Part shown: positions 1-15,533 of the stretch, piece by piece
Numbering within the stretch: position 1 is the stretch's first letter
Layout: the number at the start of each line of letters is the position of its first letter
Source: a virus
Lineage: Duplodnaviria; Heunggongvirae; Uroviricota; Caudoviricetes
Length of the DNA stretch: 16,518 nt
Virus record (IMG/VR): IMGVR_UViG_2563366924_000007
Reading direction: 5' to 3' (one strand)
Program-made: the position numbers and the translations under genes
The notes under the pieces: model-generated
What the model saw: only the letters and a program-made list of their open reading frames with translations
What the model was told of the DNA's origin: nothing
The model's database searches: none

Positions 1-192
1 TCAACGCCTTAATTTATCTGGCTTTCGCCACTGATAGGGAGGCGCTTCCATGCGCTGGCGGTGCCGCTGTTTAGCGGCCAACACCATAGCTGTTTTAGTG
101 CGGATTACCAGCTTATCCTGCCCGTTAAGTTCATGGCCCAATTGACGAGCCATTTCGTCGATCACAGACTCAATTTTCTTGTGTTTGAGCAT
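1..192 (-). CDS. Hypothetical small basic protein downstream of terL (about 63 aa)
   Basis: ORF track 1..198; ATG at 192..190 sits 2 nt after the terL stop; stop TGA at 3..1. No motif recognised. Confidence 0.4.
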   Translation of the reverse strand: MLKHKKIESVIDEMARQLGHELNGQDKLVIRTKTAMVLAAKQRHRQRMEAPPYQWRKPDKLRR

Positions 193-194
193 AT

Positions 195-1856
195 TCAAAT
201 CCCGGTAAATTCGGCAAGTCGCTGCTTATGGCTATCGCTCATATCGAAAGCAAAATCCTCATGCTCAGCCTGGAAGGTGCCGAACGCCATCAGCGCAGAT
301 ACCGCAGGATCTATCTTGTTAGAGGATTTCTTTTTGTTGGGCTTAATGTTGGCGTTAGCGTCGGACTCCATCACCACGTTACCAATCGCCCAGGCCAGAA
401 CCGGATCGCCCCGATGGCGCACCACCTTGCGGTTTACGAACACCTCAAAGGATTTCGCTACCGGACTGAATTTAAGATAGGTTTGCGGGAACGGCTCCAC
501 ATCGAGGCCCGCCCCCTGCAGCTGGGTGCGTAGATGCGTGGCGTTCCACGTATCAAAACCCACCAGCCGAATGTTGAATGTTTCGGCATCACGCAAAATA
601 TCGTCACGGATGCGGTCATAGTCGATACAGTCACCGGGTGTGGTGCGTATCCAGCCCGCTTTCACCCACTGGCGGTAGATGGCGCGGTTTTTGTTGGCGA
701 CGTTAAGCAACTGTGCTTCCGGCAGATAATGACGGGTCAGGAGCCTGATCTCCCTGTCGAACGGGAAAGCGTAGCTCACGCTGGTGATATCGCTGGTAGA
801 GGACAGGTCAAACCCGGCGTAGCACTCCCTTCCGGCCAGATCTTCTTCGGTATAGTCGAGTGCACAGGCATCCCATGCACCGGCACCCATCCACGGCGTG
901 GAGCCCTGACACCAGATATTGAAACGTTTGGTCAGCATTTCCACCCACTGCGACGGTATGCCCCGTGCTTTCTGGATGGTGGATTCCAGTTTCGCCGCGT
1001 CAACGGATACATGCAGGTTAGGGTTGGCCTTGATCCACATTTCCGGCTGTTCAACCTCGCTTTCGTCGTCCAGCTCGTAGATCAGGACAAACAGCGAATC
1101 GTTGCTCTCTTCCCCGGCCAGAATCTGGCAGCAGTAGTCGTAATGCTGTTTGCAGGCGGAGACAACATTACTCCCGGCGGTGGTAATGGCGAACAGAACC
1201 GCCTCAGGACGTGCGCCCATGCCCAGCTCAAGCGCGGAATAAACGCCGTTATCCGGGTGAAGATGGTACTCATCGACAATCGCCAGGCTGGGGTTAGTGC
1301 CCTCAATGGTAGCCGCCTTCGCCGCCAGTGGCTTTAACAGGCTGTTGCTCTTCGGAAAAATGACCTTGTGCGCCTGAATATTGACGCGCTTTTTCAGCGG
1401 TTTTGACAGCAGACACATCTGGCGGGCATCGTCGAACACGATTCGGGCCTGATCCCGGCTCACCGCCGCCGTGTAGATATCCTGCTGGCCCTTCTCCATC
1501 ACCAGAAACCAGTTAGCCAGCATGGCGGCCACAGTGGATTTGGCATTCTTGCGCGGCACCTCAATAAACGCGCTGCTGTACTTCCGGCGGCCTGACTCCC
1601 TGACTTTAAAGCCCAGCAGGTTAGCAAAGGCGAACTGCTGCCACGGCTCCAGCTCGATTGGCTGGCCGCGCAGCGGGCCTTTGACGTGTGGACAGAGCCG
1701 GGAAAAGGCAATAAACCGCTCTACGGTCGCCGTATCGAACTCATAACGGGGGTCATTCAGGTCTGAAAAGTACCTCTCCACGGCCTGTTTTACACGCTTA
1801 CAGGCCGGAATTTCGCCCGTTTTTATCGCGTTTGCGTACTCATTCCAGACGGTCAA
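195..1856 (-). CDS. terL: Phage terminase large subunit
   Basis: 553 aa; P-loop-like segment IEVPRKNAKST, Walker B-like LAIVDEYHL, size and position after terS. Only in-frame start that includes the P-loop is TTG at 1856, preceded by a GAGGAAG Shine-Dalgarno-like sequence. Confidence 0.88.
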   Translation of the reverse strand: MTVWNEYANAIKTGEIPACKRVKQAVERYFSDLNDPRYEFDTATVERFIAFSRLCPHVKGPLRGQPIELEPWQQFAFANLLGFKVRESGRRKYSSAFIEVPRKNAKSTVAAMLANWFLVMEKGQQDIYTAAVSRDQARIVFDDARQMCLLSKPLKKRVNIQAHKVIFPKSNSLLKPLAAKAATIEGTNPSLAIVDEYHLHPDNGVYSALELGMGARPEAVLFAITTAGSNVVSACKQHYDYCCQILAGEESNDSLFVLIYELDDESEVEQPEMWIKANPNLHVSVDAAKLESTIQKARGIPSQWVEMLTKRFNIWCQGSTPWMGAGAWDACALDYTEEDLAGRECYAGFDLSSTSDITSVSYAFPFDREIRLLTRHYLPEAQLLNVANKNRAIYRQWVKAGWIRTTPGDCIDYDRIRDDILRDAETFNIRLVGFDTWNATHLRTQLQGAGLDVEPFPQTYLKFSPVAKSFEVFVNRKVVRHRGDPVLAWAIGNVVMESDANANIKPNKKKSSNKIDPAVSALMAFGTFQAEHEDFAFDMSDSHKQRLAEFTGI

Positions 1857-2196
1857 GCTCGTCTTCCTCTTCCGTTTCTACCGGATTCCGGCGGCGGCTC
1901 ACCGGATCAAAGCCCAGCAGCGACGACATTTTAATCATGATTTTTTCAGCATCGGCCTTTGCACTCAGTGCCGGATTTCGGCTCTCGCCACCCTGGCTGT
2001 TAACAATGCTGAACCCACGGCTGGCAAGGTCTTCCACGGCTTTGCGGTACATCGAATAGTTGACGCAAAAAAGCTCAAGGTTGTTCCAGTCGGCGGGTGT
2101 CAGATCGCCACGCTCGGCCAGTTGCTTCGCTTTCGCTTTCCACTGCTGCGCGGCTAACTCATCAAGGTAAGCTGGCGGTTTTGGTGGTCTTGCCAT
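1840..2196 (-). CDS. terS: Terminase small subunit (P27-like)
   Basis: Translation from ATG at 2196 (MARPPKPPAYLDELAAQQWKAKAKQLAERGDLTP...) resembles P27-family small terminases; the longer track ORF to 2364 is an alternative-start extension. Stop overlaps the terL start. Confidence 0.8.
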   Translation of the reverse strand: MARPPKPPAYLDELAAQQWKAKAKQLAERGDLTPADWNNLELFCVNYSMYRKAVEDLASRGFSIVNSQGGESRNPALSAKADAEKIMIKMSSLLGFDPVSRRRNPVETEEEDELDRLE

Positions 2197-2249
2197 AAAA
2201 ATTTCTCGTTTCCATCGCGTTTTATTTTCAAAAAAATCACCGTGCGTAA

Positions 2250-2320
2250 AAATTTGAGGGGGCGGGCGGTGCCTGGCACCTTGAGGTTTGTCCTGAAAAC
2301 CTCCCCCACCCCGTCCATGC
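2250..2320. other. Candidate cos/packaging site in the HNH-terS intergenic region
   Basis: Perfect 13-bp palindrome GGTGCCTGGCACC (2268-2280) flanked by a G-tract (GAGGGGGCGGGCGG) and a C-tract (CCTCCCCCACCCCGTCC), in a roughly 275-bp non-coding gap just upstream of terS. Confidence 0.3.
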
Positions 2321-2471
2321 GGCCTGTCAGCGGTTGCGGAAGCATTCCCGCAACTCCCGTTCACGCTCGCTCATACGCTGCACAGGCTGGCGCTCATTGC
2401 GTCTGCTTCGCCCCTGCATGAAGCCATCACGGCAGCGCATCAATGATCGGTACAGATTCACCACGTCTTTC

Positions 2472-2915
2472 TCATTCATTTCTGCCCTCATACATCCAGT
2501 CATTGCGATGGGCTGCACGCTCTTCCTGCTCACGGTACAGCCCTGCTTTGCGCTTCGCTTTGGTGGTTGGGTCTTGCTGTGTGGTCTTCTGGTTATGATG
2601 CGCCTGGCATAACGGCTGGTGATTCCACTCAGGCCAGAACAGAACGTCATCACCGCCGTTGATAGGGATGATGTGATCGACAATCTTTGCAGGAACGTAG
2701 AGGCCCAGCTTCTGACACTCAACGCACAGCGGATAGCGCTTAAGGTACTGAGCGCGGTACTTCTCCCATGAGGCTGAATAACCACGGGCGCGACGGTGGC
2801 CGCGTCTGGCATCCTCTGCCCGCCACGCTTCCCGCTTATGCTCGTCACACTTGCCAGACTTCACCCGTTTATTGCATCCCGGCTCTGTGCACCGGCGTAG
2901 TGGTTGCCACGGCAT
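2472..2915 (-). CDS. HNH endonuclease (packaging-associated)
   Basis: Cys/His-rich HNH-type motifs (CVECQKLG, HIIPINGGDD, NHQPLCQAHHNQK); ATG at 2915 overlaps the upstream stop; sits immediately before terS. Confidence 0.85.
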   Translation of the reverse strand: MPWQPLRRCTEPGCNKRVKSGKCDEHKREAWRAEDARRGHRRARGYSASWEKYRAQYLKRYPLCVECQKLGLYVPAKIVDHIIPINGGDDVLFWPEWNHQPLCQAHHNQKTTQQDPTTKAKRKAGLYREQEERAAHRNDWMYEGRNE

Positions 2916-3208
2916 CAGTACACCCCCACATCTCGGTAGACAGACCACAACGCAGAGACAGCCATCGGTATCTCTTTGGCGTCGGTGTCACCAATCATCG
3001 TGCGGTACTCGTACAGCTGAGAGACGTACATCAAACAGCCGATCTTGATAGCCGGGGTGAACTCCAGACCGTTATCAAATCGCTTGCCGATATGCTTCTG
3101 GCAGACCTCCAGCGCAGCTTCGATGTACGCCTGTATCAACGTATCTTCGTAATCATCATCAATACGGCAATGCAGCTTTGCTTCTTCCAGACCGATTAAC
3201 TCACTCAT
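2915..3208 (-). CDS. gp6-like head-tail connector / DNA-packaging protein
   Basis: Translation from ATG at 3208 (MSELIGLEEAKLHCRIDDDYEDTLIQAYIEAALEVCQKHIG...) matches the gp6-like connector pattern; GGAGG Shine-Dalgarno upstream; the track ORF to 3460 is an extension. Confidence 0.75.
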   Translation of the reverse strand: MSELIGLEEAKLHCRIDDDYEDTLIQAYIEAALEVCQKHIGKRFDNGLEFTPAIKIGCLMYVSQLYEYRTMIGDTDAKEIPMAVSALWSVYRDVGVY

Positions 3209-3539
3209 TGAAAATGCCTCCCTTGCACAGCAGCTCAAGCCGGGTGTGATCCACATCAGGAATGACGGCCACGATGCCGTAAACCTGCCCCCGGACGTTT
3301 GGCGAGCGGTACAGAATGCGGTTTGCGGTGGTGATATCGTCGCGGTAGCGCGTCCAGATTCGCACAGTGGCTTCGGAGTAAAGCGCCCCGGAAGACATGC
3401 GCTCACGCCCGCTGATAGCACGAATTTCAGCCCAGACTGAGGCAAGGTCAGCCCATTCATAGATAACCTGACCAGTCGGGTCGCGGTGAGATTCCGACTT
3501 CTGAAAGGTAACGCGGCGTTTCATCTTTCCGGCTCTCAT
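3201..3539 (-). CDS. Head-tail adaptor / head closure protein
   Basis: 112 aa with the pattern typical of this family (VWAEIRAISGRE...IWTRYR...LELLCKG); ATGA overlap with the portal stop. Confidence 0.75.
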   Translation of the reverse strand: MRAGKMKRRVTFQKSESHRDPTGQVIYEWADLASVWAEIRAISGRERMSSGALYSEATVRIWTRYRDDITTANRILYRSPNVRGQVYGIVAVIPDVDHTRLELLCKGGIFNE

Positions 3540-4771
3540 ACGTCACCGTCCTTGCTGTCTTTACTGATCTTCACTTCCTGCTTCCATGCCTGACTGAACT
3601 CGTCACCACCTTCACGCGGCGGCATACCCTCACGCTCACGGGCTTCGTTCGGGTTCATAATCCCGTTCTTGATACCGCGCTCATAAGTGGCGTAACGCTC
3701 GGTAGGTGTGGCACGGAGAAGGTCAGCGGAGTCAAACTCCACCAGATAGCGGGTTCCCGGAACGGGAGAGGCCACCAGCAGCGCGGATTTAATTTGTTGC
3801 TCGAAGTTCGCCAGCCACGGACGCATCGTCATGGTGAGAAATGCGCGGCTCGCCTCACTAAAATTGCTGTAGGTGCTGTTGCTGTATTCCTGCAAGAAGA
3901 TGGGAGAAACGTTAAACATGCGGGCAATGTCTTCAATGGAGAAGCGCCGGGAGGCCAGCCACTCAGCATCCTGATTGCTCATGCCAAGTTGCTTATAGTC
4001 CATGCCACCTTCAAGGATCGGCGTTTTCCCGGCATTTCTGGCACCTTTGTAACGTTCCAGCGCATCCATTGCCTGTTTGCCCTTCACGCTGTCGAGCCAT
4101 TCTTTAGTTACCACTACCCCCGAAGCCATCATCCCATCTTTCATAATGCTGGCACCGTGGCGCTGTTGTGCCAGACCTAACCCCAGCGCCTCACGGCAGA
4201 TGGTGATCGGCGAACGCCCCAGAAAACCATCATCGGTGGAGTAACGCAGGTGCAGAATCTCTTCCTGCAGGTAGGTGCGCACTGCCCCGGTAAACGGTTC
4301 AGTAACGGTGTATTTGTACTTATGCTGGCCGATACGCTCAGGAACAACCGCCCCCGGCGCATACGGATGCAGGGATTGCGGCTGGCCGTCACGGCCCCAC
4401 TGGATCACCGCATAGGCGTTACCATTCAGCAGGCAATGACGCATCATCGTGCGCTTGAACTGGTAAGGCGTCTGACAGTCGTTCGGTTGCTCGTTAAGGA
4501 GAAAATCCACCGGGTGATTGCTTAGCCACTCCCGCGCTTCTCGGCCGTTATCGTTGCGCACGCGGTAGAGGTAGCAGGGCATTGTTGCCACTGCCTCGCT
4601 GATAACTGATATGGCGTTCATGACCGCCGGCAGAGATTCCGCAGTACCGGCAGACACATATTCGCCTGATCCGGTATTTGGAATCCCTGCCATCGCCAGA
4701 AACTCATCAATCGTCATGCTGCGCTGTTCGGATGGCTCAGATTTACGGCCAAAAGGCCAGATATTCCACAT
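3536..4771 (-). CDS. Phage portal protein (HK97-type)
   Basis: 411 aa; position between protease and adaptor; sequence character of HK97-family portals. Confidence 0.88.
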   Translation of the reverse strand: MWNIWPFGRKSEPSEQRSMTIDEFLAMAGIPNTGSGEYVSAGTAESLPAVMNAISVISEAVATMPCYLYRVRNDNGREAREWLSNHPVDFLLNEQPNDCQTPYQFKRTMMRHCLLNGNAYAVIQWGRDGQPQSLHPYAPGAVVPERIGQHKYKYTVTEPFTGAVRTYLQEEILHLRYSTDDGFLGRSPITICREALGLGLAQQRHGASIMKDGMMASGVVVTKEWLDSVKGKQAMDALERYKGARNAGKTPILEGGMDYKQLGMSNQDAEWLASRRFSIEDIARMFNVSPIFLQEYSNSTYSNFSEASRAFLTMTMRPWLANFEQQIKSALLVASPVPGTRYLVEFDSADLLRATPTERYATYERGIKNGIMNPNEAREREGMPPREGGDEFSQAWKQEVKISKDSKDGDV

Positions 4772-4772: not shown

Positions 4773-5333
4773 TCACAGCCCCGCTAAGTCAGCCCAGCGT
4801 CGGCGGTTATCACCAGCACGGCGCAGTTCAGGATGTTGGGAGAACAGAGAACGGTGCGCAATTTCCACGCCGGACTCAGGGTAAGCAGGCATAGAAGTAA
4901 CGGTGATCTCCCGCAGCTCGGCAGCGGTAACAGTGCGAATATACGGTGTAGGAGTAATATCCCAGGACTCTTTCAGCGCACGGAATCCGAAGCTCATGCC
5001 GGAAATGTCTCCACGCTCCACCAGCTCCAGCACATCATTGCCAAGTTGGGTGTTTGGCGGGGTCAGCTCGAAACGCAGCCCGGTATCATCTTCGGACAAC
5101 ACCAGCGTGCCGGATTTGGTACGCCCCAGCAGTTGGGTATAGTTATGCTCGTACAGTGCACGCACATCGCTACCGGATGCCAGGCTGTCTTTAAACGCCC
5201 CCGGCGCAAACTGCTCGCGGAACTCATCCCAGATCACCTCTGACAGGCTGTTCCAGCGCACGGCATAGCCCACCAGCTTTTTGTTGCTGGCGCTCAGTTC
5301 GGAGGTACGGATTTCAAAATCGATTGTTTTCAT
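4773..5333 (-). CDS. Prohead maturation protease (HK97-type)
   Basis: 186 aa; resembles HK97-family prohead proteases; GGAG Shine-Dalgarno before the ATG at 5333. Confidence 0.85.
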   Translation of the reverse strand: MKTIDFEIRTSELSASNKKLVGYAVRWNSLSEVIWDEFREQFAPGAFKDSLASGSDVRALYEHNYTQLLGRTKSGTLVLSEDDTGLRFELTPPNTQLGNDVLELVERGDISGMSFGFRALKESWDITPTPYIRTVTAAELREITVTSMPAYPESGVEIAHRSLFSQHPELRRAGDNRRRWADLAGL

Positions 5334-5384: not shown

Positions 5385-6551
5385 TCAGGAACCGGAACCG
5401 GAAAGCTCAAGCACCTTGATGGCGTTGGAGTCCACCACACCACCGCCTAGGTATTTATCGGTGTGCACCTTGTAGAAACCAGGTTCGGTGATGTTGTCGG
5501 GGCGGGTACGCACGCCAGTGGTGTGATCCACGATGAAGTAACCGCGCTTAAAGTCGCCGACTGCCAGGAACGCTTCACCCGCAGCCGCATCAGGCATGGT
5601 TTCCAGATATTGAACCGGACGGCCAAGGAGGGTATCGGGAGAGTCAGCGACGAGACGATCACGCCAGATGTAATCCCCGTTGCCGTTTTTCAGCTTTTGC
5701 AGCGTAGCGGCAGTGTTGGAGTTCATCACCCATACGGCATTTTTACGGTATTTGGCTTTCAGCTTATACAGCAGGTCGATCAATCCATCAGAGGAAACGG
5801 CAGCAGCTTCCATTTTCTCCAGCGTTCCGAACGGACGGGTTTTATCGCTGGTGGCCGCACGCGGATAGGACAGGAACCCTTTGGATTTTTTATCACCGTC
5901 GCCGTTCACAAAGTCGGTTTCTTCGGTAGCAGTGAAGGTGTCGGTGATTTCGGAAGACAGCCAACCCAGAATATCAACTTCGGAGAAGTCGAGAATTTCC
6001 TGAGTGGTTTTCGGGTAGGCGTAGATCGGGTTGAGTTTGATATCAACGCGCTCCATCTTAGGTGTGCTGGTTTCGGTACGCGCTTCGCCTTCGGTGCCGC
6101 GCTTAACGGTAGTGCCACCCACTGATACCAGCTTCTGGTATTCGTTGGTTTTGGTGGTCTTCACCGTAGCGATGGAGCGCATAACGCTGTCATCCTGCAA
6201 CTGGCGCATGATCTCTTTGTCCAGCTCAGGGATAACGGTATAGCCGCCGTCAGCCTGCACCAACGTGGAGAGAGAGCGGGTATCGCCGGTCATGATGTAG
6301 TGGCGCAGCTCATCGTTGCTTACACCTTTACCTTCAACAGAAGTACCAGGCAGATTGCGCTGATCGTCGGCGACGGCCTCAAGGCGGGTAATTTCAACTT
6401 CAAGCGCATCAGCCTGGGCGCGGAGTTCATCGAACTGCTTGCCCTCTTCATCGTTCAGGCTTCGCTTTTCGCTGTCAGCTTTTTCCAGCATGGAACGCAT
6501 CTGGGTTTTGAGTGCGGCTTTCTGCTGGCGTAATTCAAGTAATTTCTTCAT
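5385..6551 (-). CDS. Major capsid protein (HK97-fold) with N-terminal coiled-coil delta domain
   Basis: From ATG at 6551 (MKKLLELRQQKAALKTQMRSMLEKADSEKR...) a charged coiled-coil N-terminus then an HK97-like capsid body; the track ORF to 6668 adds an implausible N-terminal extension. Confidence 0.88.
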   Translation of the reverse strand: MKKLLELRQQKAALKTQMRSMLEKADSEKRSLNDEEGKQFDELRAQADALEVEITRLEAVADDQRNLPGTSVEGKGVSNDELRHYIMTGDTRSLSTLVQADGGYTVIPELDKEIMRQLQDDSVMRSIATVKTTKTNEYQKLVSVGGTTVKRGTEGEARTETSTPKMERVDIKLNPIYAYPKTTQEILDFSEVDILGWLSSEITDTFTATEETDFVNGDGDKKSKGFLSYPRAATSDKTRPFGTLEKMEAAAVSSDGLIDLLYKLKAKYRKNAVWVMNSNTAATLQKLKNGNGDYIWRDRLVADSPDTLLGRPVQYLETMPDAAAGEAFLAVGDFKRGYFIVDHTTGVRTRPDNITEPGFYKVHTDKYLGGGVVDSNAIKVLELSGSGS

Positions 6552-6813: not shown

Positions 6814-7326
6814 ATGGACTTCGATTTTGATGATATGGCATACCCGGATATTTTTTTAATTTCCGGCGAGGAGTTTAAAGGAAGCCGGAACACAGGAAAA
6901 AATCAGGTAGATATCCCGTTTACTGACGAACCGCAAATTGAATTGGGTGATATTCTGATTCAGAAGATTGGAAGCCGCGAGTTAAGCCTTAAAGTTGTCG
7001 ATCTTTCAATATCAAAGAATGGAACGCTGAACGTAGGTACAACGCATCCTCACTTACTTACGTTATCCGTAGAGAATCTTTCTTCCGACGCACACAGGAC
7101 AGCAAAGAGCATGAATACTTTTAATATTGGCTCCGTCAGTGGTGAGCAAGTTCAAATAGGTGAAAGTAATCATATGCTGGTGAATATCAGTATTACTGAA
7201 CTTGTCGAGAAAGTAGCCAAATCTGGCGATCCACAGGCTAAATCAATGTTGAAACAGTTACTGGAAAATAGCACCGTTGCCAGTATCGTTGGCGCTGGCG
7301 CTTCCGCGCTGTTAGGTCTGCTTTAA
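6814..7326 (+). CDS. Hypothetical protein, AT-rich, with C-terminal hydrophobic Gly/Ala-rich tail (170 aa)
   Basis: Clean ORF with a GGGGGA Shine-Dalgarno-like sequence before the ATG; opposite orientation to neighbours; C-terminus VASIVGAGASALLGLL looks like a membrane anchor. No recognised domain. Confidence 0.6.
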   Translation: MDFDFDDMAYPDIFLISGEEFKGSRNTGKNQVDIPFTDEPQIELGDILIQKIGSRELSLKVVDLSISKNGTLNVGTTHPHLLTLSVENLSSDAHRTAKSMNTFNIGSVSGEQVQIGESNHMLVNISITELVEKVAKSGDPQAKSMLKQLLENSTVASIVGAGASALLGLL

Positions 7327-8050: not shown

Positions 8051-10186
8051 TTATTCTTCTCCATCTTCCGCAACCTGGTGAAGCACATAAACGTTAATTT
8101 GACGCCCATCAATACGCGGGGATTTCTGCTGGTATCCACGCCCGCTGGACGGCTCAGAAAGCAAGCCAGCAGCGGCAAGCACGCGGGCAAACTGCCTGGC
8201 GTTAAAGCCCTGAGCTATCTCCTTCTCAAACGTTGCGGGGAACGTATAGAACACCAGCGGCGCATCATCATGGCTGCTTTTGCGCTTTCGATACCCGGCC
8301 AAATCGCGAATTGGCATACTGGACGGATCATAGGGCAACGGTGCAAAGCGGCTTAAACCGTAGGCATTCAGGAACGCCTCGCACTGCTCGATGATCTGCT
8401 GGTGCTCTTTGTTACCCGTGCCGAACTCTTTCACCCAGGCGTTAAAGCTATGCTGGATAGCGTCACGGCTGGCCTGTTCACTCCATCCGGTGATTGATGC
8501 ACCAGTTACCAGCGCGGCTTCGAGGATTGCAAAACGTTCAGCCACGCGGTGTACCTGCTCACCGTAGTCAGCCGGGATGAGGCCGCGCCAGCGCGTTTGC
8601 GCGTCACGCACCGCCTGTTTAGCCTCCTGCTGGTTAGCCGCCAGCCATTTAACCCACTCACGCCCCGCCGCCCCGTGGTTATCAATCCAGGCTTCTTTCA
8701 GTGCGTCAGCATGAGCCTTGCCGTTTGGCAGACCGTTAAAAGCCGTCGATTTCTCCATAGGGATGTTGAGCAAGCGCACCAGTTGGCCCGCTTTCACTTT
8801 CAGCCCACCAGCAGCCAGGAAGGTTTCAATATCCATTTCCCCGGTGCTGATCGCCACAGTGCGCCAGCGTTTAAGCTCCCGATTGCCGCCCTCTTTGGCT
8901 CCCTGCAACTTTCCGGCACCGTTAAACAGGGTGTAGGCAGACGTAGCAACATCTTTGGCACTGCTGCCCTGTCCTACCTCATCAAGCGGTAACAGGCTGT
9001 CGTTATGCGCCTCCGCTTCGTTTGCTATGCCAAGCGCAGTACCGTACCAGGTAAGCCGCAACGCATCAGGCTCACCCCACAGGCTGCTCGCAATATTGGC
9101 GGTAGTGGTCTTACCGGCGCTCGACTGCTCGAACAAATGGACGCCGAAACCATCAGCCCCCACCAGGCCAATAAGCGGCGCGGATAATGCCGCTGCCACG
9201 CCCAGCATCATGGACGGATTGCCCCCGGCCAGACGGGCGACGGAATCCCGCCAGGTGGCAGCAGTACCAGCAATGGCATACCCGGAAGATGCAGCGCTGC
9301 GACCGTTAAAGAGAATGGGCGTCTCTGGATCACCAATCACTTCACCATCAGGCATGATATATGCGCCGTGATGCCAGCCAGTGGTATGGGTGATAATCCA
9401 TTCCCGATCAGTGCCGCTTTGCTGCAACCAGTCGGCCAGAATCGCCCGGAATGTGCTTTTAGTGGTCACATTCACCCCACCAGCTTTAAGTGAGCGCCAG
9501 CCGTCGCGCTCACCGATATCAGCACAGGGGATCGCCCTGGTAATATCTTCATGGCCACGCGGCGAACGCCAGCGCAAAACAAGATAGCGCTCTGCCCCGT
9601 CACTACCGGAGCCGACCACCTCAAGAGGCGAGCACAGCCACGTTTCGTTATTGATGATCTCGCCACTATCCTTGTCCACCTTTGGCGTGATCCAGTACAG
9701 GCCATCGCTCCGGCTCTCCACGCGGGGTTTGAGTTCATCGCCCGGTTCAGGCTTTGGCTCCCGTTTTTTTACAGGCAGGTTCACCACAATGCTTTCCCCG
9801 CGTTCGGCCTCTTCTTTGAGACGTGGAAGCCTGCCCGTCCAGTCCTCCTTCGGCTGAGGCTCAAACATGCCATTAAACAGCCTGGCCTCTTTCACATCCG
9901 CCAGCGCCAGTTTGGTTGCGATAGTGCTTATCTGCATTTCGGAAAGTTCGCCAGCGCGGATCACACGAACACTGCGACGGCCGTTATCAACAATGTTTAA
10001 CCGTTCCAGTTCCGCAAGTTGCCTTTTACCCAGATAAACAGGCGGTACATCATCCCATGCCCTTTTACCTTCGCTCTCGATCCAGTGCTGCACATGCGAA
10101 TAGGCATCTTCACCCGCAAAGATAATCGCCTCGGTAAATTTATCTTTCGGCAGGAATTTAATGTTCGGGGCATTCTTCATCTTCAT
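8051..10186 (-). CDS. Replication initiator/helicase-like P-loop NTPase (satellite Rep type)
   Basis: 711 aa; Walker A-like SSAGKTTT and Walker B-like LLPLDEVG; adjacent to iterons; start translationally coupled to the upstream small ORF. Confidence 0.7.
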   Translation of the reverse strand: MKMKNAPNIKFLPKDKFTEAIIFAGEDAYSHVQHWIESEGKRAWDDVPPVYLGKRQLAELERLNIVDNGRRSVRVIRAGELSEMQISTIATKLALADVKEARLFNGMFEPQPKEDWTGRLPRLKEEAERGESIVVNLPVKKREPKPEPGDELKPRVESRSDGLYWITPKVDKDSGEIINNETWLCSPLEVVGSGSDGAERYLVLRWRSPRGHEDITRAIPCADIGERDGWRSLKAGGVNVTTKSTFRAILADWLQQSGTDREWIITHTTGWHHGAYIMPDGEVIGDPETPILFNGRSAASSGYAIAGTAATWRDSVARLAGGNPSMMLGVAAALSAPLIGLVGADGFGVHLFEQSSAGKTTTANIASSLWGEPDALRLTWYGTALGIANEAEAHNDSLLPLDEVGQGSSAKDVATSAYTLFNGAGKLQGAKEGGNRELKRWRTVAISTGEMDIETFLAAGGLKVKAGQLVRLLNIPMEKSTAFNGLPNGKAHADALKEAWIDNHGAAGREWVKWLAANQQEAKQAVRDAQTRWRGLIPADYGEQVHRVAERFAILEAALVTGASITGWSEQASRDAIQHSFNAWVKEFGTGNKEHQQIIEQCEAFLNAYGLSRFAPLPYDPSSMPIRDLAGYRKRKSSHDDAPLVFYTFPATFEKEIAQGFNARQFARVLAAAGLLSEPSSGRGYQQKSPRIDGRQINVYVLHQVAEDGEE

Positions 10187-10551
10187 CAGTGCAACACCTT
10201 ATTGGACATATCCGCGCCCAGGTCTTCATGCAGGTACTCAAGGTGGCAGCTTTTCACTATCTGCAACCCCATTTCGTTAATATCGCCATCGTCGGTAAAG
10301 CAGGTCAGCAGAATATCCCGCAAACGCCTTAACCCCTCATCGCGCCCGAATTCTTCAAAGCAGCCAAAAATCATATATTTCATCAATACGTTTTCAGTTA
10401 CGCGCGGCTCCAGCGTGAAGCGATAGCGGGCCATATACTTATCGCTTTCCACCAGCAAGGTTGCCGAACCGGTTTCCGCTATCTGGTGAGCAATACAGGT
10501 TTCGGTCAGTTTGCGGAACAATGGGCCTATCACTTCAAAAATATCGGTCAT
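10186..10551 (-). CDS. Hypothetical protein (121 aa), coupled to rep
   Basis: ATG at 10551 in an ATGA overlap with the upstream stop; its own stop overlaps the rep start. Confidence 0.5.
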   Translation of the reverse strand: MTDIFEVIGPLFRKLTETCIAHQIAETGSATLLVESDKYMARYRFTLEPRVTENVLMKYMIFGCFEEFGRDEGLRRLRDILLTCFTDDGDINEMGLQIVKSCHLEYLHEDLGADMSNKVLH

Positions 10552-10916
10552 TGCGGGATACCTCCGCTCATCTGAAATTTGCCAAGTAATGGGTGATACC
10601 AGTACGCCGATCCGTATTTACGTTTTGCACTACGCAGCACCAGCCGCGCCGCCTCTCTGAATTTCTCATCAGGAGCCACGAACCCGCCTGATTTTAACCG
10701 TACCAGCATTACCCCTGTGTTTTTCGCCAGTTCTTCGGCCTTCTTGGTTGAAATGCCAAACTCCGCCGCCAGCGTAGTAACCGGACTCATACCCGGGGGG
10801 ATTTCGCCACCCTGGCTATCTGTGAGTGATTTGATCTGCAGCTCGAGGTTCAATACCTTCTCCACCAGCAAATCGAGGCGCTTTTCCAGTTCGTTGAATT
10901 TAACGTTACTGATCAT
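10548..10916 (-). CDS. Putative DNA-binding protein with N-terminal coiled coil (about 122 aa)
   Basis: From the internal ATG (MISNVKFNELEKRLDLLVEKVLNLELQIKSL...) with a helix-turn-helix-like segment TTLAAEFGISTKKAEELAKNTG; this start gives an ATGA overlap with the upstream gene. Confidence 0.45.
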   Translation of the reverse strand: MISNVKFNELEKRLDLLVEKVLNLELQIKSLTDSQGGEIPPGMSPVTTLAAEFGISTKKAEELAKNTGVMLVRLKSGGFVAPDEKFREAARLVLRSAKRKYGSAYWYHPLLGKFQMSGGIPQ

Positions 10917-11221
10917 TTGAACACCCCCTGACGCTGCCTGAGCACGAAACTGGCTGTGCAACTGTTCTGCTCCAGAGCCTTAGCTAACCGGGGAAGATTT
11001 CGCAGCGTGTCACCCAATAACATCATGTCGCGGCGTGCTTTTTCGTTGCTGTATTCCTCACTCAGCGATGCCTCAAGCATCAGGTTTCCAATCAGGGTAA
11101 GGGTATTGCTGACAGCGCGTGCTGCCTCGCTACAGACGTCAGAAACCTCAGATAAATCATCATCAGAATGTCTTCTGAAATCTGGCGCGTGCTTTACAAG
11201 TTGATGGTAAATATCACGCAT
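10913..11221 (-). CDS. Hypothetical protein (102 aa)
   Basis: ATG-initiated ORF within the coupled minus-strand operon; no recognised motif. Confidence 0.45.
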   Translation of the reverse strand: MRDIYHQLVKHAPDFRRHSDDDLSEVSDVCSEAARAVSNTLTLIGNLMLEASLSEEYSNEKARRDMMLLGDTLRNLPRLAKALEQNSCTASFVLRQRQGVFK

Positions 11222-11402
11222 GGGTCACCTCACTTGCCGCTTTTAGTTCACGAACGCGGGACAACGACATGCTGATCAGATCCATCGCAACGCTGTACTC
11301 GGTTTCATCATCAAAATTCATATACAGCGATGTTGAGAGCAACGCTTCCAGGCGGCGCAGTTCATCTTCAATGTCAATTTCCGACCATTTGACCTTACGC
11401 AT
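11214..11402 (-). CDS. Hypothetical small acidic protein (62 aa)
   Basis: ATG at 11402; overlaps the stop of the upstream ORF. Confidence 0.4.
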   Translation of the reverse strand: MRKVKWSEIDIEDELRRLEALLSTSLYMNFDDETEYSVAMDLISMSLSRVRELKAASEVTHA

Positions 11403-11607
11403 GGCGCACCTCCATACTCTGAAATGCGTGGAACGGCAGGCGGGCAGCGAAAACGAGGGTTACGCCGGGCATGGTGTCTCGGGCTTCCTGCTCACTGGAT
11501 GCGTTGACGTAGATTACCAACGGCTTTGCGGTTGGGTATCGCTCAGAGGTGAAGAGAAATCTCCATGTAAATTCCGGGCGAGTTTGGGTAGACTGATTGT
11601 CAGCCAT
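11395..11607 (-). CDS. Hypothetical protein (70 aa), first gene of the replication operon
   Basis: Internal ATG at 11607 (MADNQSTQTRPEFTW...) preceded by GAGGT; the longer track ORF to 12099 runs antisense through the RHH gene and is rejected. Confidence 0.4.
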   Translation of the reverse strand: MADNQSTQTRPEFTWRFLFTSERYPTAKPLVIYVNASSEQEARDTMPGVTLVFAARLPFHAFQSMEVRHA

Positions 11608-11637
11608 AACTGTTACCTCACTTAACGGTTTGGTGAG

Positions 11638-11679
11638 ACGCCTCGGTACTGCTCGAACAGTCCGGGGCGTTGTTTTTTT
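11638..11679 (+). terminator. Strong hairpin plus T-tract in the divergent regulatory region
   Basis: ACGCCTCGG ... CCGGGGCGT stem with an inner ACTG/CAGT stem, followed by TGTTTTTTT on the plus strand. Confidence 0.4.
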
Positions 11680-11740: not shown

Positions 11741-11935
11741 ATGTCAACACCCATTAAACGAGATCGGCAACCAAAAGGAGCCGGGAAAGCACCAGCGTTC
11801 CAGATTCGAATCCCCCCCGAACTTAAAGAGCAATTTGAAAAAGAAGCCCAAGCAGAGAGTGTTAGCCTCGCAAATTGGATGAAGGAATTAGGCCGGGAAG
11901 CCCTCCGAAAGAAAGGTATTGAGCCAAAAGGCTGA
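11741..11935 (+). CDS. Arc/CopG-like ribbon-helix-helix DNA-binding protein (64 aa), candidate repressor
   Basis: MSTPIKRDRQPKGAGKAPAFQIRIPPELKEQFEKEAQAESVSLANWMKELGREAL has a beta-strand plus two-helix RHH pattern; divergent from the replication operon. Confidence 0.5.
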   Translation: MSTPIKRDRQPKGAGKAPAFQIRIPPELKEQFEKEAQAESVSLANWMKELGREALRKKGIEPKG

Positions 11936-12032: not shown

Positions 12033-12060
12033 GGCAGCTCTGCAAAGCTGCCTTTGTTTT
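12033..12060 (+). terminator. Intrinsic terminator after the RHH gene
   Basis: GGCAGCT-ctgcaa-AGCTGCC followed by TTTGTTTT; abuts the ant stop codon on the other strand. Confidence 0.55.
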
Positions 12061-12838
12061 ATTCAGCGTCAGCATTCGGCACCTCCGGCAATACACCACC
12101 AGCGATCAGTCTTTTCGTTAACCACTGCTCACCTTTCCCTGTCAGCATCGTTGTGAATGAGGCTCTTACCTCGCCATTCGTTTCATACGTTCCCTGGCGA
12201 ACGGCAAAATAACCGCTATCGATATAACGCTGCATAGGCAGGTTGTGGCGCTGGCCGCCATTGATGAGAATCCCCTGTTGCCTCATCCAGCCGAATAATT
12301 TGATGGGGCCAAGCCCTACGGCTTTGGCATAGTTTGGAATGGAAATCCCCTTACTGATCTCTGCCACGCGATCAGCAAAATCAACTTTTGGCGCAGCGGC
12401 CACCAGCCGGTTTTCAAGTTCGCTTGCCTTTTCGGCAAGATCAGCGGCAAGGCGCAGGGCTTCCGGTAACGTCTGGGGGATATTAGCGGCGGCTTTTGCC
12501 TGGCGTTCGCAGTTGATGAAGTAGCGGCGTACCTCCCGCCCTTTTTCGTTGCGCTCAACCATTGCCAGCTCTTTACCCATATCAATAGTGATCAGGTAGT
12601 CATGTTCCATCTGCTGCCGAGATTTTGCGCTCGCCCGTTTTGGCGTGCTCAAACTTTCAACAATGATGTAATCGACTCCAGTAGTGAAGCCGTACTGGCT
12701 AATACGCCCTTTAATCCAGTTGGTGAAATCACGCCCAACGCCGAGAAACGCATGGAGTTTTTTTGCACTGACCAGCGATACCGTCACGCCGCCAATATTT
12801 CCGGGGTTAACCGGAACCAGCTCATTTAATTTTTGCAT
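12059..12838 (-). CDS. Phage antirepressor (AntA N-terminal plus KilAC C-terminal domain)
   Basis: N-terminal HDYLITIDMGKELAMVERNEKGREVRRYFINCE and a C-terminal KilAC-like region. Confidence 0.8.
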   Translation of the reverse strand: MQKLNELVPVNPGNIGGVTVSLVSAKKLHAFLGVGRDFTNWIKGRISQYGFTTGVDYIIVESLSTPKRASAKSRQQMEHDYLITIDMGKELAMVERNEKGREVRRYFINCERQAKAAANIPQTLPEALRLAADLAEKASELENRLVAAAPKVDFADRVAEISKGISIPNYAKAVGLGPIKLFGWMRQQGILINGGQRHNLPMQRYIDSGYFAVRQGTYETNGEVRASFTTMLTGKGEQWLTKRLIAGGVLPEVPNADAE

Positions 12839-12846: not shown

Positions 12847-13131
12847 CTACGCAGGTTTACGGTTGTAAGGGGTATTGACGTTCTCAACAGCAGGTGGATT
12901 GCGAACCCACCAAAGAACATCTGACAGAAGCCATGCGCAACTATTACGGCCAAAGTGGCAGCGTGGCGGGAATTTACCTTCGTTCTCCATATACCAGCGG
13001 GTGGAACGGGAAAGGCTGGTTATTTCGAAGCATTCACTTTCACGAATACGGCGATCAAACTTAATGCCATATTCTGCGAGAATGGTGCGGCGTTGTTCAG
13101 GTGTTGGCGGGGTAAAAAGAGTATTTGACAT
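12847..13131 (-). CDS. alpA: AlpA-family transcriptional regulator / excisionase-like protein
   Basis: HTH segment ITSLSRSTRWYMENEGKFPPRCHFGRNSCAWLLSDVLWWV; strong GGAGG Shine-Dalgarno before the ATG at 13131. Confidence 0.7.
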   Translation of the reverse strand: MSNTLFTPPTPEQRRTILAEYGIKFDRRIRESECFEITSLSRSTRWYMENEGKFPPRCHFGRNSCAWLLSDVLWWVRNPPAVENVNTPYNRKPA

Positions 13132-13235: not shown

Positions 13236-14042
13236 TCATTTCCTACGCCTATTTTTTTGCTCAATCAACCTCTCCCGGATTTCTCTCTCAAACTTTTCCA
13301 ACGAAAAATTTGCAAGATTTTTTTCGAAAAAAGGCCGAATAGTTTCACAGAGTTTCTTTTCTCCGACTGATAGATCAGGGAAAATCGAACCGGCAATTAC
13401 ACTACTGCTTATCCTGTTTCCTGTAATTTTTTGCCAGCAGAACAGGTCAGCATAGGGGAAGATTCCATAACTTATTATCTTCCTTCTGGCTACTTCCCAA
13501 GAATTTATTGATAGTTCATTATTTGGGTCTGGAATATTTAAGGAATTTCGCCATGATGAAAGCAAAGATGATAAGTCTTCAATTAAAAATTCATCAGGAT
13601 AACGTAAATCCAATTTAACAAAGAAATCATCCCCGAAGTTATCAATCAGATTAATACAGTCCAGCAACCCCAAAGTATCAGCATCATCATATTCATCAAC
13701 TACTTTTTTAGAGTGCATTATTTTGAATATATCGTGACGCTGTAAAGGCTCAATCAGCATTGACGAACCAAGCCGTTTACCTGCATTTGAGTTATCTTCC
13801 TGCATATCGGATTGCACGCAATCAACACCAGCAAAAGCATCCTCACTATATTTTCTGTCAGCTACTGGATTAGACATTATTATTTTTAAATCATCTTCAT
13901 CTATCCATTTCTCATAGTCTGCGACCATATAATGACGCATTAATAACTGATTAAAAAACTCTCTATCATCTAATGATTCAAAAGTTTTATATTTCCCTAT
14001 ATCGAAATACTCCGGCAAATCGCTTTTCTTGTTAATTAACAT
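13236..14042 (-). CDS. Hypothetical protein (268 aa), markedly AT-rich, adjacent to the integrase; candidate cargo gene
   Basis: Clean ORF with a GAGGGTG Shine-Dalgarno-like sequence; by eye far more AT-rich than the flanking integrase and alpA; acidic, no recognised catalytic motif. Confidence 0.6.
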   Translation of the reverse strand: MLINKKSDLPEYFDIGKYKTFESLDDREFFNQLLMRHYMVADYEKWIDEDDLKIIMSNPVADRKYSEDAFAGVDCVQSDMQEDNSNAGKRLGSSMLIEPLQRHDIFKIMHSKKVVDEYDDADTLGLLDCINLIDNFGDDFFVKLDLRYPDEFLIEDLSSLLSSWRNSLNIPDPNNELSINSWEVARRKIISYGIFPYADLFCWQKITGNRISSSVIAGSIFPDLSVGEKKLCETIRPFFEKNLANFSLEKFEREIRERLIEQKNRRRK

Positions 14043-14133
14043 ATCGTCACCCTCAACGCCCCTAATAACTTGCGAGCCAGGCGGGTAGGGTTTCCCGCTT
14101 TTCGGTTGGCCGACCTAGACCCGCAATATCAGT

Positions 14134-15360
14134 TTAATCTCTATTCGCTACAGGTAACAGAACAACATTTTGATGATTACCCGCAAGAAGTTCTAAGCGG
14201 TCATACCACTTGTTCAGCGCGTCCAGCTTCTCCGGCAAGTACAGACTACGGTTATAAATCGCCATAACTCCCGGCATTGAATGGCCCAGCAACTGTTCAA
14301 CAACGTGCGGAGCGATACCCATATTATTCATATGCGTTGCAAGCGTTCGCCGTAGATCATGCAATGTCCAAGGTTCAGAATGCCCCAGTTTTTTATAAAC
14401 ACTACGGCCCCACTGGCTAACCGCTTCGCTATTCTTCACAACCCCAAGAAGGTAGCCGGATGATTTTGTTTCATCGTGGAGCATTTCAATAAATGAACGC
14501 ATCGCCTCCGGAACTGGACGCACAATCTTTTCACCGCCTTTACTATGCGCTTTTGGTACTGTCCACATCCACGCCTCCATATCCCATTCGGCCCACTCTG
14601 ACAATCTGGCCTCCTGGGTGCGGCAACCAAACAAAGTAGTGATCCTGAGCAAGTTTGTGTAGTAAGGCAGAAAAACATCGCCGGACGATATAGCAGCCCA
14701 CAATCCCCCAACCTCTTTATCTTTCAGTACACGATCTTTTTTCGCCTGCTTTTTACCAACATCGGGAATACTCAAATCTTCAAGGGCGGTACTGACGGCG
14801 TAACGGCGAACGCGGCAGAATTTCAGAGCCTGCTTACACATCTGGAATACATAACCAGCAGCAACCGGCGTTTTCTTTTTCATCCTGTCAAAGCAGTCAA
14901 GCCAGTAACGGGTTTCGCAGTCAGCGAGCGCCATTTTCCCAATATAAGGGTAAATGTGTTTGCGCAGCTCCGCTTTATGCCGCTCAACGTTCGCACGGTT
15001 TTCTTCCGCATATTCGCGTATCCAGTATTCGATAGCTTCCTGCACCGTGACCGGTTTAAGCGTTTCCTGAGTAGTTAGCGCCAACTGGTGCTTTGGGTCT
15101 TTACCAGAGGCCAGCCACTGACGACATTTATCACGCGAGGAACGGGCCTCTTTGAGACTCATATCAGGGTAGCGCCCCAGAGTCAGCCGATGCAGCTTCT
15201 GCCCGTCGAGTCGGTAAGTAAACACCCAGCTAATGCCACCAGCTTTCGTTACCTTAGCGCTCAACCCGGCACCATCAGCATAAAACTCAATCTTACTGGC
15301 CGGGATGCCATGTAATCCCTTTAACTTCCTGTCGCTCAGTTTGTTAAGTTCGCCAGCCAT
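14134..15360 (-). CDS. int: Tyrosine site-specific integrase (P4-like)
   Basis: 408 aa with catalytic-domain pattern (R in FGCRTQEARL, HDLRRTLATH, LLGHS, Y in AIYNRSLY) and an N-terminal arm-binding-like region. Confidence 0.9.
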   Translation of the reverse strand: MAGELNKLSDRKLKGLHGIPASKIEFYADGAGLSAKVTKAGGISWVFTYRLDGQKLHRLTLGRYPDMSLKEARSSRDKCRQWLASGKDPKHQLALTTQETLKPVTVQEAIEYWIREYAEENRANVERHKAELRKHIYPYIGKMALADCETRYWLDCFDRMKKKTPVAAGYVFQMCKQALKFCRVRRYAVSTALEDLSIPDVGKKQAKKDRVLKDKEVGGLWAAISSGDVFLPYYTNLLRITTLFGCRTQEARLSEWAEWDMEAWMWTVPKAHSKGGEKIVRPVPEAMRSFIEMLHDETKSSGYLLGVVKNSEAVSQWGRSVYKKLGHSEPWTLHDLRRTLATHMNNMGIAPHVVEQLLGHSMPGVMAIYNRSLYLPEKLDALNKWYDRLELLAGNHQNVVLLPVANRD

Positions 15361-15380
15361 AGACCATCACCCAGCCCAAA

Positions 15381-15403
15381 GTGTTTATACAAATGTTTAT
15401 ACA
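15381..15403. repeat. Tandem direct repeat upstream of int
   Basis: TGTTTATACA at 15381-15390 and 15394-15403, in AT-rich DNA between the int start and the element boundary. Confidence 0.3.
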
Positions 15404-15533
15404 GAATTGCTTGCATAATAGCATAAACAACAAAAAGCACTGGAACAATATACAGTTACATTTTCATTTAACTGATTGATTTTAAATAAAATATAAAAAC
15501 CACCGCAAAGCATGAAAACAGCTAATCTGACAG

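Follow-up and report, generated by a model that had tools for sequence, protein, structure and literature searches.

An E. coli locus that encodes an integrase, a replicase and a complete HK97-type head raises the question whether it is what is left of a prophage or an intact element of another kind. The window studied here, the whole stretch of DNA of 16,518 nucleotides, had been interpreted from its letters alone as a satellite forming its own capsids. Our analysis makes it highly probable that the stretch holds an intact 15.7-kb capsid-forming phage-inducible chromosomal island (cf-PICI), inserted by a tyrosine integrase at the 3' end of fis in E. coli. Gene content, gene order, intactness, boundaries, origin repeats, and homology and collinearity with EcCIEDL933, the prototype cf-PICI of E. 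coli O157:H7 EDL933 and a proven functional satellite (Alqurainy et al., 10.1101/2022.09.08.507074), all agree with this reading, and nothing was found to contradict it. The earlier interpretation is thereby correct and not new, as the element is a typical member of an abundant family described in 2022-2023.

Gene content of the element

Read on the minus strand, window 1-15611 carries genes for an integrase, AlpA, an AntA/KilAC protein and a DUF927 replicase, followed by iterons and the head and packaging genes. Pfam searches place all genes listed by the sequence-only reading (int, AlpA, antirepressor, Rep, and the head/packaging set) where it had put them. Identities refer to EcCIEDL933, for which NZ_CP008957 1680329-1694760 served as reference locus.

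14134..15360, minus: tyrosine integrase with arm-binding domain (Arm-DNA-bind_3 and Phage_integrase; 50% identical to EcCIEDL933 Int)
14059..14125, minus: int-alpA RNA motif, Rfam RF02996 (58.1 bits; gathering score 35.8)
12847..13131, minus: AlpA regulator/excisionase-type protein (Phage_AlpA E 2e-10; 47% identical to EcCIEDL933 AlpA)
12059..12838, minus: AntA and KilAC antirepressor-type protein (Pfam ANT E 8e-26, AntA E 3e-24)
8051..10186, minus: replicase, DUF927 with Walker A motif (DUF927 E 5e-50; 63% identical to EcCIEDL933 Rep)
7749..8026, no strand assigned: replication origin, 12 iterons GTTGGTTCA, both orientations, directly after rep
5385..6551, minus: major capsid protein (MCP), HK97 fold with N-terminal delta/scaffold domain (Phage_capsid E 5e-68)
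4773..5333, minus: HK97-type prohead serine protease S78 (Pfam E 6e-48; 64% identical)
3536..4771, minus: portal protein (Phage_portal E 1e-95; 79% identical)
3201..3539, minus: head closure/completion protein, the tail-facing adaptor (Phage_HCP E 2e-26; 40% identical)
2915..3208, minus: gp6-like head-tail connector (Phage_connect_1 E 1.5e-10; 64% identical)
2472..2915, minus: HNH endonuclease (Pfam HNH 22.0 bits, cut-off 21.4; 76% identical)
2327..2479, minus: orf50, small conserved gene between HNH and terS (phrog_3173; 42% identical to its counterpart)
1840..2196, minus: small terminase TerS, P27/Terminase_4 family (Pfam E 3e-25; 81% identical)
195..1856, minus: large terminase TerL (TerL_ATPase and TerL_nuclease; 82% identical)

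The MCP aligns over its full length with that of EcCIEDL933 (64-65% identical), including the maturation motif and the connector-loop region, and its best PDB match is 9gyi (E 1e-158). The iterons, also listed by the sequence-only reading, are real: GTTGGTTCA with at most one mismatch occurs 15 times in the window versus 3.7 expected, a number reached in none of 200 shuffles, and 12 of these 15 copies lie at 7749-8026 with spacings of 9 and 21 nt.

Three lines of evidence agree that tail and lysis genes are absent, as had been claimed. With Pfam applied to every ORF and PHROGs to those without assigned function, no ORF matched tail, baseplate, fibre, holin or endolysin families, and the remaining ORFs matched only PHROGs of unknown function or regulators. 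On the 19-residue Kyte-Doolittle scale, values of 1.96 (a segment within the 711-residue Rep) and 1.45 (orf170, in its C-terminal tail) stand out; all other proteins of the element reach at most 1.31, so that none of the small proteins looks holin-like. As about 91% of the element is coding, there is no room for hidden genes. The cfPICI model of SatelliteFinder defines 11 core components and forbids tails and holins (PMC10085698); all 11 are present here and the forbidden ones are not. Together with the collinearity with EcCIEDL933, these core components support the interpretation as a capsid-forming satellite.

Boundaries at fis and alternative origins

From attL to attR the element measures 15,701 bp.

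15534..15611, plus: attR, 78 bp, repeating the 3' end of fis and its terminator without any difference from the unoccupied fis-yhdJ site of K-12
15382..15403, plus: doubled TGTTTATACA motif, candidate integrase arm-type site

Alignment of K-12 attB, attL and attR of ET670, and the window defines attR, so the right end near 15533 assumed by the sequence-only reading is correct; the left att site is outside the window, some 90-167 bp to the left of position 1. Window 1-9856 (9,856 nt) is matched at 100% identity by a public contig that extends leftward past position 1, where that reading had located the decisive evidence for an ordinary prophage, i.e., a tail and lysis module. This contig contains no such module there and shows instead 153 bp comprising the element end and attL, then fis, dusB, and prmA. 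The flanks of three related E. coli genomes were inspected, and each has a matching left junction; the doubled TGTTTATACA motif also borders the inner side of attL in both ET670 and the identical contig. The element is bounded by attL at fis, which lies about 150 bp beyond the last gene, and by attR at yhdJ, and it supplies a replacement fis 3' end and terminator.

Several other origins have to be weighed. A complete temperate HK97-like siphovirus prophage was rejected, as no gene for a tail tube, tape measure, baseplate/tip, fibre, holin or endolysin was found between the att sites. That the locus is a defective remnant of such a prophage, with tail and lysis modules deleted, would fit the HK97-type families of its head and packaging proteins, and prophage decay is common, but we regard this as extremely unlikely. 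Of 5,426 complete E. coli genomes, 613 (about 11%) contain this same compact arrangement without tails and in the same size class between att sites, and it is also seen in 486 IMG/VR stretches and in 167 confirmed stretches from species-representative genomes. The core genes are all full length, the left half, with its int, alpA, DUF927 rep and iteron origin, is of PICI type and not the immunity and replication region of a lambdoid phage, and the order of MCP, protease and portal genes is unlike that of HK97 phages. Moreover, among sizeable phage records none has an MCP more than 38% identical to this one, the closest being 38-41 kb Pseudomonas phages; higher values come only from small element-sized records, from fragments, or from a copy located terminally in a 106-kb Klebsiella phage record. 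The homologous EcCIEDL933, finally, is functional as a satellite.

Very unlikely, too, is a cf-PICI by descent that is no longer mobile, i.e., a domesticated or silently decayed copy. Promoter evidence was not found, promoter-like sites not being enriched (20 vs 16.1 expected), which would suit such a copy, but no damage is seen in the 11 core ORFs, in attL and attR, in the iteron array or in the conserved block ahead of terS. In addition, an identical TerL, a protein indexed in 41 blocks of the contig collection, is encoded at no fewer than two chromosomal loci that differ in replication module and in the surrounding host genes, suggesting that the packaging module has moved recently. A classical Gram-negative PICI that forms no capsids, or a P4-like satellite remodelling those of its helper, would share int, alpA, an Icd-like gene and the rep/origin architecture, and thousands of PICIs occupy the fis site (PMC10111431). 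Yet in classical Gram-negative PICIs of the EcCICFT073 type DNA is packaged by the TerL of the helper, and portal, connector and adaptor genes are forbidden in their model (PMC10085698); the portal, two head-tail joining proteins and TerL encoded here are exclusion criteria of that model. The capsid-size, regulatory and derepression genes sid, psu, delta and epsilon would be expected in a P4-like satellite; a comparison by family name detects none of them in the Pfam and PHROG hit lists. Gene content refutes this last reading, to which we give practically no credence, and the locus is best described as an intact cf-PICI.

Proposed life cycle and variable cargo

For EcCIEDL933, KpCIDSM30104, and EcCIGN02175, and only for these, AlpA-dependent induction by helper phages and transfer with helper tails have been demonstrated (10.1101/2022.09.08.507074; 10.1101/2025.02.11.637232). 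From the biology of the prototype described in these studies and the homology with EcCIEDL933, the following cycle is proposed for the whole island. A helper phage or spontaneous activation would switch on alpA, and AlpA would promote excision at the 78-bp attL/attR repeats as well as expression of island genes. The DUF927 replicase would then fire the iteron origin at 7749-8026, and the late operon (MCP, protease, portal, head closure, gp6, HNH, orf50, TerS, and TerL) would direct formation of small HK97-fold procapsids. The identity of the MCP to the solved prototype suggests that the island makes its own small T=4 capsids containing only island DNA. An HNH endonuclease is a packaging cofactor in HK97-type cos systems, and concatemers might be cut by TerS, TerL and HNH at a cos site just upstream of terS, a single 15.7-kb unit being packaged per head.

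2220..2312, minus: candidate cos/terminase recognition region between orf50 and terS, with non-coding blocks 2286-2312 and 2220-2273

These blocks are near-invariant among 57 distinct sequences (the window and related loci from Enterobacterales) and adjacent orf50 DNA varies; the non-coding block upstream of terS is also conserved with EcCIEDL933. Conservation and gene position thus suggest a cos role. Head-closure and gp6 proteins would complete a neck that accepts siphovirus tails of the helper phage, which would also provide lysis. The island would therefore build and fill its own small heads and depend on a helper for tails and lysis only. Since the head-closure protein is just 40% identical to that of EcCIEDL933, tail compatibility probably differs and the tail specificity of the prototype is not transferable. 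In relatives with 91-98% identical MCPs, head-closure identity is just 46-51%, which is evidence that this gene has apparently been swapped between otherwise near-identical packaging modules.

The remaining genes are the following.

13236..14042, minus: DUF6387 cargo gene between int and alpA (Pfam E 2e-29; no PADLOC match)
11741..11935, plus: divergent ribbon-helix-helix protein, YlcI/YnfO family (weak RHH_5, HicB, and Arc matches)
11395..11664, minus: Icd-like small protein (RefSeq name of the ET670 homologue; phrog_1743)
10186..11402, minus: orf121, orf122, orf102, and orf62, four small overlapping genes (unknown-function PHROGs only)
7373..7708, minus: orf111 (phrog_7232 only)
6814..7326, plus: orf170, opposite-strand cargo gene in a variable region of low GC
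1..198, minus: orf65 (63-65 residues), after terL, last gene before attL (phrog_7271 E 1e-47)

The ribbon-helix-helix protein is likely a regulator; its family name is taken from RefSeq annotation in relatives, and it is 65% identical to an EcCIEDL933 ORF. orf65 belongs to a PHROG of unknown function, is 37% identical to the post-terL gene of EcCIEDL933, and occupies a variable cargo position filled by other genes in relatives. The Ant/YlcI/Icd cargo set is already published. orf170 is an uncharacterized cargo gene with a predicted neck-protein-like fold.

P4 epsilon inactivates the repressor of P2. The AntA/KilAC antirepressor, encoded directly after alpA, could similarly inactivate repressors of resident prophages, and if so the satellite would trigger its own supply of tails and lysis without waiting for helper induction. 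The predicted N-terminal β-barrel of orf170 resembles phage neck/stopper proteins and its C-terminal tail is hydrophobic; on this structural model, the protein could block head-tail joining of the helper, thereby freeing tails, or be a neck-mimicking defense sensor. Taken jointly, the idea that variable cargo actively manipulates helper phages is speculative and rather unlikely to be right; the published cf-PICI work cited here shows neither antirepressor-type nor orf170-type manipulation.

Relatives and known systems

Relatives also occur in many genera of the Enterobacterales, and cf-PICIs have been reported for 13% of Enterobacteriaceae genomes (PMC10085698). Dozens of Enterobacterales species preserve the gene order of the MCP-to-TerL block (about 6.4 kb) and have int and alpA 6-9 kb upstream of it, and near-identical packaging modules are found in Escherichia, Klebsiella, Enterobacter, Citrobacter, Kosakonia, Kluyvera, and Pluralibacter. 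As a finding the element adds little, cf-PICIs having been defined experimentally in 2022-2023 and being detected automatically by SatelliteFinder; its main value lies in annotation. Correct labelling is important, since by borrowing tails cf-PICIs pass from one genus to another. RefSeq labels are generic (“phage portal protein”, “DUF927 domain-containing protein”), and cf-PICI-like elements are listed as phages in public phage records. For those working on cf-PICIs, the conserved candidate cos block, head-closure swapping, and orf170 may be of use.

EcCIEDL933 is similar in size (15.4-15.5 kb vs 15.7 kb) and identical in gene order from int through the small post-terL gene, all packaging genes being homologous (40-82% amino acid identity), and its iteron origin, with spacings of 9 and 21 nt, also directly follows rep. 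In contrast, EcCIEDL933 is attached at roxA-phoQ instead of the fis 3' end, its iteron is TAACCCGCA instead of GTTGGTTCA, and it carries SSB, PerC, and DUF4222 as cargo, whereas Ant/KilAC, DUF6387, orf170, and orf111 are encoded here; the int-alpA RNA motif present here was not detected there. In the group of the cross-genus cf-PICIs EcCIGN02175 and KpCIDSM30104 (He et al., 10.1101/2025.02.11.637232), the variable positions are the same, namely the flanks of the packaging operon, the region downstream of alpA, and the adaptor/connector genes. By published figures, head closure and connector of EcCIGN02175 are 40% and 61% identical to those of EcCIEDL933 (10.1101/2025.02.11.637232), compared with 40% and 64% here. 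Going by the published description, the 16.4-kb cf-PICIs EFN743 and IsolateF of Enterobacter cloacae (PMC13612085) are alike as well, although their host genus differs. The fis attachment site is already published: a survey mapped 2,642 satellites at fis (Mageeney et al., PMC10111431), and these share the fis 3' end and the downstream yhdJ with our element, but all were handled as regular PICIs and capsid-forming ones were not separated.

Phage HK97 and HNH-dependent cos siphoviruses employ the same head and packaging families (delta-domain MCP, S78, portal, gp6, head closure, HNH, TerS, and TerL), likewise with the candidate cos between HNH and terS. Unlike these phages, the island lacks tail, lysis and lambdoid regulatory genes, its order of MCP, protease and portal is inverted, and its 15.7 kb amount to about one third of a phage genome. 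The gene transfer agent (GTA) of Rhodobacter capsulatus, RcGTA, provides the second-best solved structure for the MCP (E 1e-49) and also matches the portal (E 4e-23), and, like the particles predicted for the island, it is small-headed and of HK97 type. GTAs package random host DNA, encode their own tails, and have no integrase, att sites or origin. The island differs from RcGTA in the opposite sense, as it encodes no tails and possesses an integrase, att sites, and an origin.

Boundaries and gene content of the element

The element is intact and bounded by att sites; it carries a replicase with an adjacent iteron array and a complete head and packaging set, and is devoid of tail and lysis genes. 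Coding is dense from window position 15360 to position 1, with nearly all genes on the minus strand, and the PHROG matches of the other small ORFs are to proteins of unknown function or regulators, nothing else.

Features of the element and its right flank (proteins between attR and position 1 assigned with Pfam; in brackets, identity to EcCIEDL933, the prototype capsid-forming PICI (cf-PICI) of E. coli O157:H7 EDL933)
15628-16518, yhdJ, beyond attR
15534-15611, attR, 78 bp, exact match to the unoccupied fis-yhdJ site in E. coli K-12
14134-15360, minus, tyrosine integrase with arm-binding domain (Int, 50%)
14059-14125, minus, int-alpA RNA motif, Rfam RF02996, between int and the DUF6387 gene
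13236-14042, minus, DUF6387 protein
12847-13131, minus, AlpA (47%)
12059-12838, minus, AntA and KilAC antirepressor-type protein
11741-11935, plus, divergent ribbon-helix-helix protein
8051-10186, minus, DUF927 replicase, 711 aa (Rep, 63%)
7749-8026, iteron array directly downstream of rep, 12 copies in both orientations, spacings of 9 and 21 nt
5385-6551, minus, HK97-family major capsid protein (MCP, 64%; 65% over full length)
4773-5333, minus, S78 prohead protease (64%)
3536-4771, minus, portal (79%)
3201-3539, minus, head completion (head closure) protein (40%)
2915-3208, minus, gp6-like connector (64%)
2472-2915, minus, HNH endonuclease (76%)
1840-2196, minus, small terminase TerS, Terminase_4 (81%)
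195-1856, minus, large terminase TerL (82%)

The attR sequence comprises the final 13 nt of fis and the fis terminator. The left att site lies outside the window and was located in public contigs retrieved with the exact TerL protein as query. In the Logan assembly of run SRR633947, one contig equals window positions 1-9856 at 100%, with zero mismatches and zero gaps, and continues to the left of position 1 with 153 bp holding a diverged copy of the 78-bp site (attL), followed by fis, dusB, prmA, and panF. The element measures 15,701 bp from attL to attR, and it supplies a new 3' end of fis (stop codon TGA, not TAA) and a new terminator. The arrangement fis, element, yhdJ recurs in ET670, KCJ3K291, and 21AR0133, the three related E. 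coli chromosomes (94-96% identical) with examined flanks, and among complete E. coli RefSeq genomes there is no nucleotide match of at least 99%, the best being 94-96%. The 3' end of fis is a satellite hotspot, to which 2,642 satellites have been mapped (PMC10111431). A doubled TGTTTATACA motif, followed by a similar AACAAAAAGCAC..GAACAATA stretch, is located just inside both element ends, beside int and beside attL (window 15382-15403; ET670 locus 5912-5936; SRR633947 contig about 9920-9944), and is likely an arm-type site of the integrase.

The sequence-only reading was to be overturned if a module for tail and lysis functions turned up to the left of position 1; attL and fis lie there in the SRR633947 contig, and extension to this other att junction reveals no tail genes, in agreement with the three related chromosomes. 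Inside the element, neither Pfam nor, for the remaining ORFs, PHROGs detect tail or lysis genes, and called genes cover 91% of positions 1-15533, which therefore leaves no room for an unseen module of either kind. Kyte-Doolittle hydropathy over 19 residues is at most 1.31 in all element proteins except the C-terminal tail of orf170 (1.45) and one segment of Rep, and no small protein has the look of a holin. The SatelliteFinder model for cf-PICIs lists 11 core components as required and tails and holins as forbidden (PMC10085698); all 11 are present and none of the forbidden ones was found. The earlier inventory of integrase, AlpA, antirepressor, Rep with iteron origin, and head and packaging set, free of tail and lysis genes, is confirmed.

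Nine cargo and small proteins gave zero matches with PADLOC. For the cargo protein orf170 (6814-7326, plus strand), no link at the sequence level exists to the element's own head closure protein (hhalign probability 0.05%) or to PDB chains (best E 0.23); its predicted structure, a medium-confidence model with a mean pLDDT of 72, shows a resemblance to neck proteins in fold alone.

Origin, regulatory signals, and a candidate cos site

The iteron origin is real: GTTGGTTCA, allowing one mismatch, occurs 15 times in the window where 3.7 copies are expected, and none of 200 shuffles reaches 15. The origin of EcCIEDL933 is laid out alike, just downstream of rep, but its iteron differs (TAACCCGCA). 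At 58 bits, the int-alpA RNA motif clears its Rfam gathering score of 36. Searches of EcCIEDL933 and of six other related loci gave no hit, so the motif is not a family-wide feature. Scans of the window show enrichment neither for sigma-70 promoters (20 versus 16.1 expected) nor for terminators (12 versus 19.1 expected).

Between orf50 (2327-2479, minus strand) and terS there is a gap of 130 bp with two non-coding blocks, 2286-2312 and 2220-2273, reading GGGGTGGGGG...CAGGACAAAC and GGCACCGCCCGCCCCCTCAAATTTTTACGCACGGTGATTTTTTTGAAAATAAAA on the minus strand. Across many genera, 57 distinct sequences keep both blocks almost unchanged, in contrast to the variable coding DNA beside them. In HNH-dependent systems of the HK97 type, cos occupies this position, and window positions 2220-2312 are a candidate cos/terminase site. 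In its linear form, the record vB_KppS-Ant (16.5 kb; LR881103.1), deposited as a phage and itself a cf-PICI, begins 22 nt ahead of terS, stops shortly past orf50, and lacks about 75 bp of the window's gap; these ends hint at cos ends and are equally compatible with arbitrary linearisation. Contig ends from IMG/VR were discarded as cos evidence, as the 80 loci have predicted prophage boundaries for their ends, with the motif upstream of terS located 0.8-6.9 kb inside.

Distribution and mosaicism

DNA of the element matches 613 of the 5,426 complete E. coli genomes. Searches with the MCP yielded 167 confirmed stretches in species-representative genomes, where copies 91-98% identical occur in Pluralibacter, Kosakonia, Citrobacter, Enterobacter, Kluyvera, and Rahnella, and more distant ones in Pantoea, Erwinia, Serratia, Proteus, Xenorhabdus, Photorhabdus, and Gilliamella. 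In IMG/VR, 486 stretches were found, with 80 loci retained, most of which span an entire contig of 14-19 kb. At the species-representative loci the block from MCP to TerL has a constant order in a span of about 6.4 kb, and int and alpA lie 6-9 kb upstream of it. Among loci L027-L080 (Xenorhabdus and Photorhabdus), several Xenorhabdus genomes are represented by many capsid-module copies, X. innexi, X. anantnagensis, and X. mauleonii having 4-6 separate loci each. Satellite sequence also appears in phage records: the final 16 kb of Klebsiella phage P12620-1 (106 kb; PQ569648.1) are a 95% copy, probably an assembly join, and fragments are present in OR85xxxx and OR84xxxx contigs deposited as Salmonella and E. 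coli phages.

Within this constant frame the head closure gene (3201-3539) is mosaic, with 46-51% identity in six loci (L007, L008, L011, L012, L013, and L025) despite an MCP identity of 91-98%; L010 is the exception among such relatives, with 94%. An adaptor swap has been proposed to change which tails fit (10.1101/2025.02.11.637232), and the mosaic gene fits this idea. Cargo varies in the slot after terL: the window has orf65 there (1-198), KCJ3K291 a DUF3892 gene, 21AR0133 a 192-aa gene with the database annotation 'tail assembly protein', and vB_KppS-Ant a 765-aa gene with the annotation 'tail length tape measure protein'. Two further loci, L176 and L178, encode an identical TerL within a packaging module 90-97% identical in nucleotide sequence. 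This module occupies another chromosomal location, close to mug, rpoD, and dnaG, and is joined to a different replicase (AAA_25/RepA type), and L178 has an extra HNH_3 gene between MCP and protease. The identical TerL at a second site with a different replicase shows modular shuffling between a replication/integration half and a head half.

Alternative origins and relation to EcCIEDL933

EcCIEDL933, a prototype characterised by experiment and placed at 1680329-1694760 of the EDL933 chromosome, has the same gene order as the window: int, an alpA-type regulator, small genes (one Icd-like), DUF927 rep, intergenic origin, and cargo, and then the packaging genes for MCP, protease, portal, head closure, connector, HNH, a small ORF, TerS, TerL, and a last small ORF. 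Packaging genes of other cf-PICIs show 50-90% similarity to those of the prototype (10.1101/2022.09.08.507074), and most identities of the window fall within this range; head closure and two small ORFs lie below it, at 37-42%. The MCPs of the two elements can be aligned through both the maturation-site motif and the region of the 'connector loop', proposed to set T=4 geometry (10.1101/2025.02.11.637232). By sequence, the best solved structure for the MCP is 9gyi, 'Major head protein' (E 1e-158). The next solved capsid is that of the Rhodobacter capsulatus gene transfer agent (6tb9/6tba, E 1e-49), whose portal is also matched by the window's portal, ranked behind two other portal structures. 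Identity to the MCP in sizeable phage records does not exceed 38% (38-41 kb Pseudomonas phages), higher matches being confined to small element-sized records, fragments, or the copy ending the 106-kb Klebsiella phage record.

A decayed prophage remnant would also be without tails, but this origin is very unlikely given a compact layout conserved across genera, a PICI-type left half, an MCP-protease-portal order inverted relative to phages, low similarity to tailed phages, and a homologue, EcCIEDL933, of proven function. Portal, connector proteins, and TerL rule out a classical PICI; a P4-like satellite is ruled out by zero matches to Sid, Psu, or Delta for any ORF among the Pfam and PHROG hits, and a gene transfer agent by the integrase, the att sites, the origin, and the lack of tails. 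That the window holds a cf-PICI copy which has been silently inactivated is unlikely: the identical TerL also occurs at another chromosomal location, next to a different replicase module, which argues for recent mobility.

For a functional cf-PICI, the prototype suggests the following cycle. Helper phage or spontaneous activation would switch on alpA, and the island would then excise and replicate. Its MCP, protease, and portal would build small T=4 heads, into which TerS, TerL, and HNH would cut and package one unit of island DNA. Head closure and gp6 proteins would form the neck accepting tails of a helper siphovirus, possibly after release of tail-less heads, and lysis would come from the helper.

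The element type is already known, and a public assembly already includes 9,856 nt of this exact sequence. A set of AntA/AntB antirepressor, YlcI/YnfO protein, and Icd cargo is listed for cf-PICIs of Enterobacter cloacae (PMC13612085). Collinearity with EcCIEDL933, the full set of 11 cf-PICI components, and att-bounded ends without tail or lysis genes bear out the capsid-forming satellite proposed by the sequence-only reading; the element is a textbook cf-PICI with a known attachment site and known cargo types.
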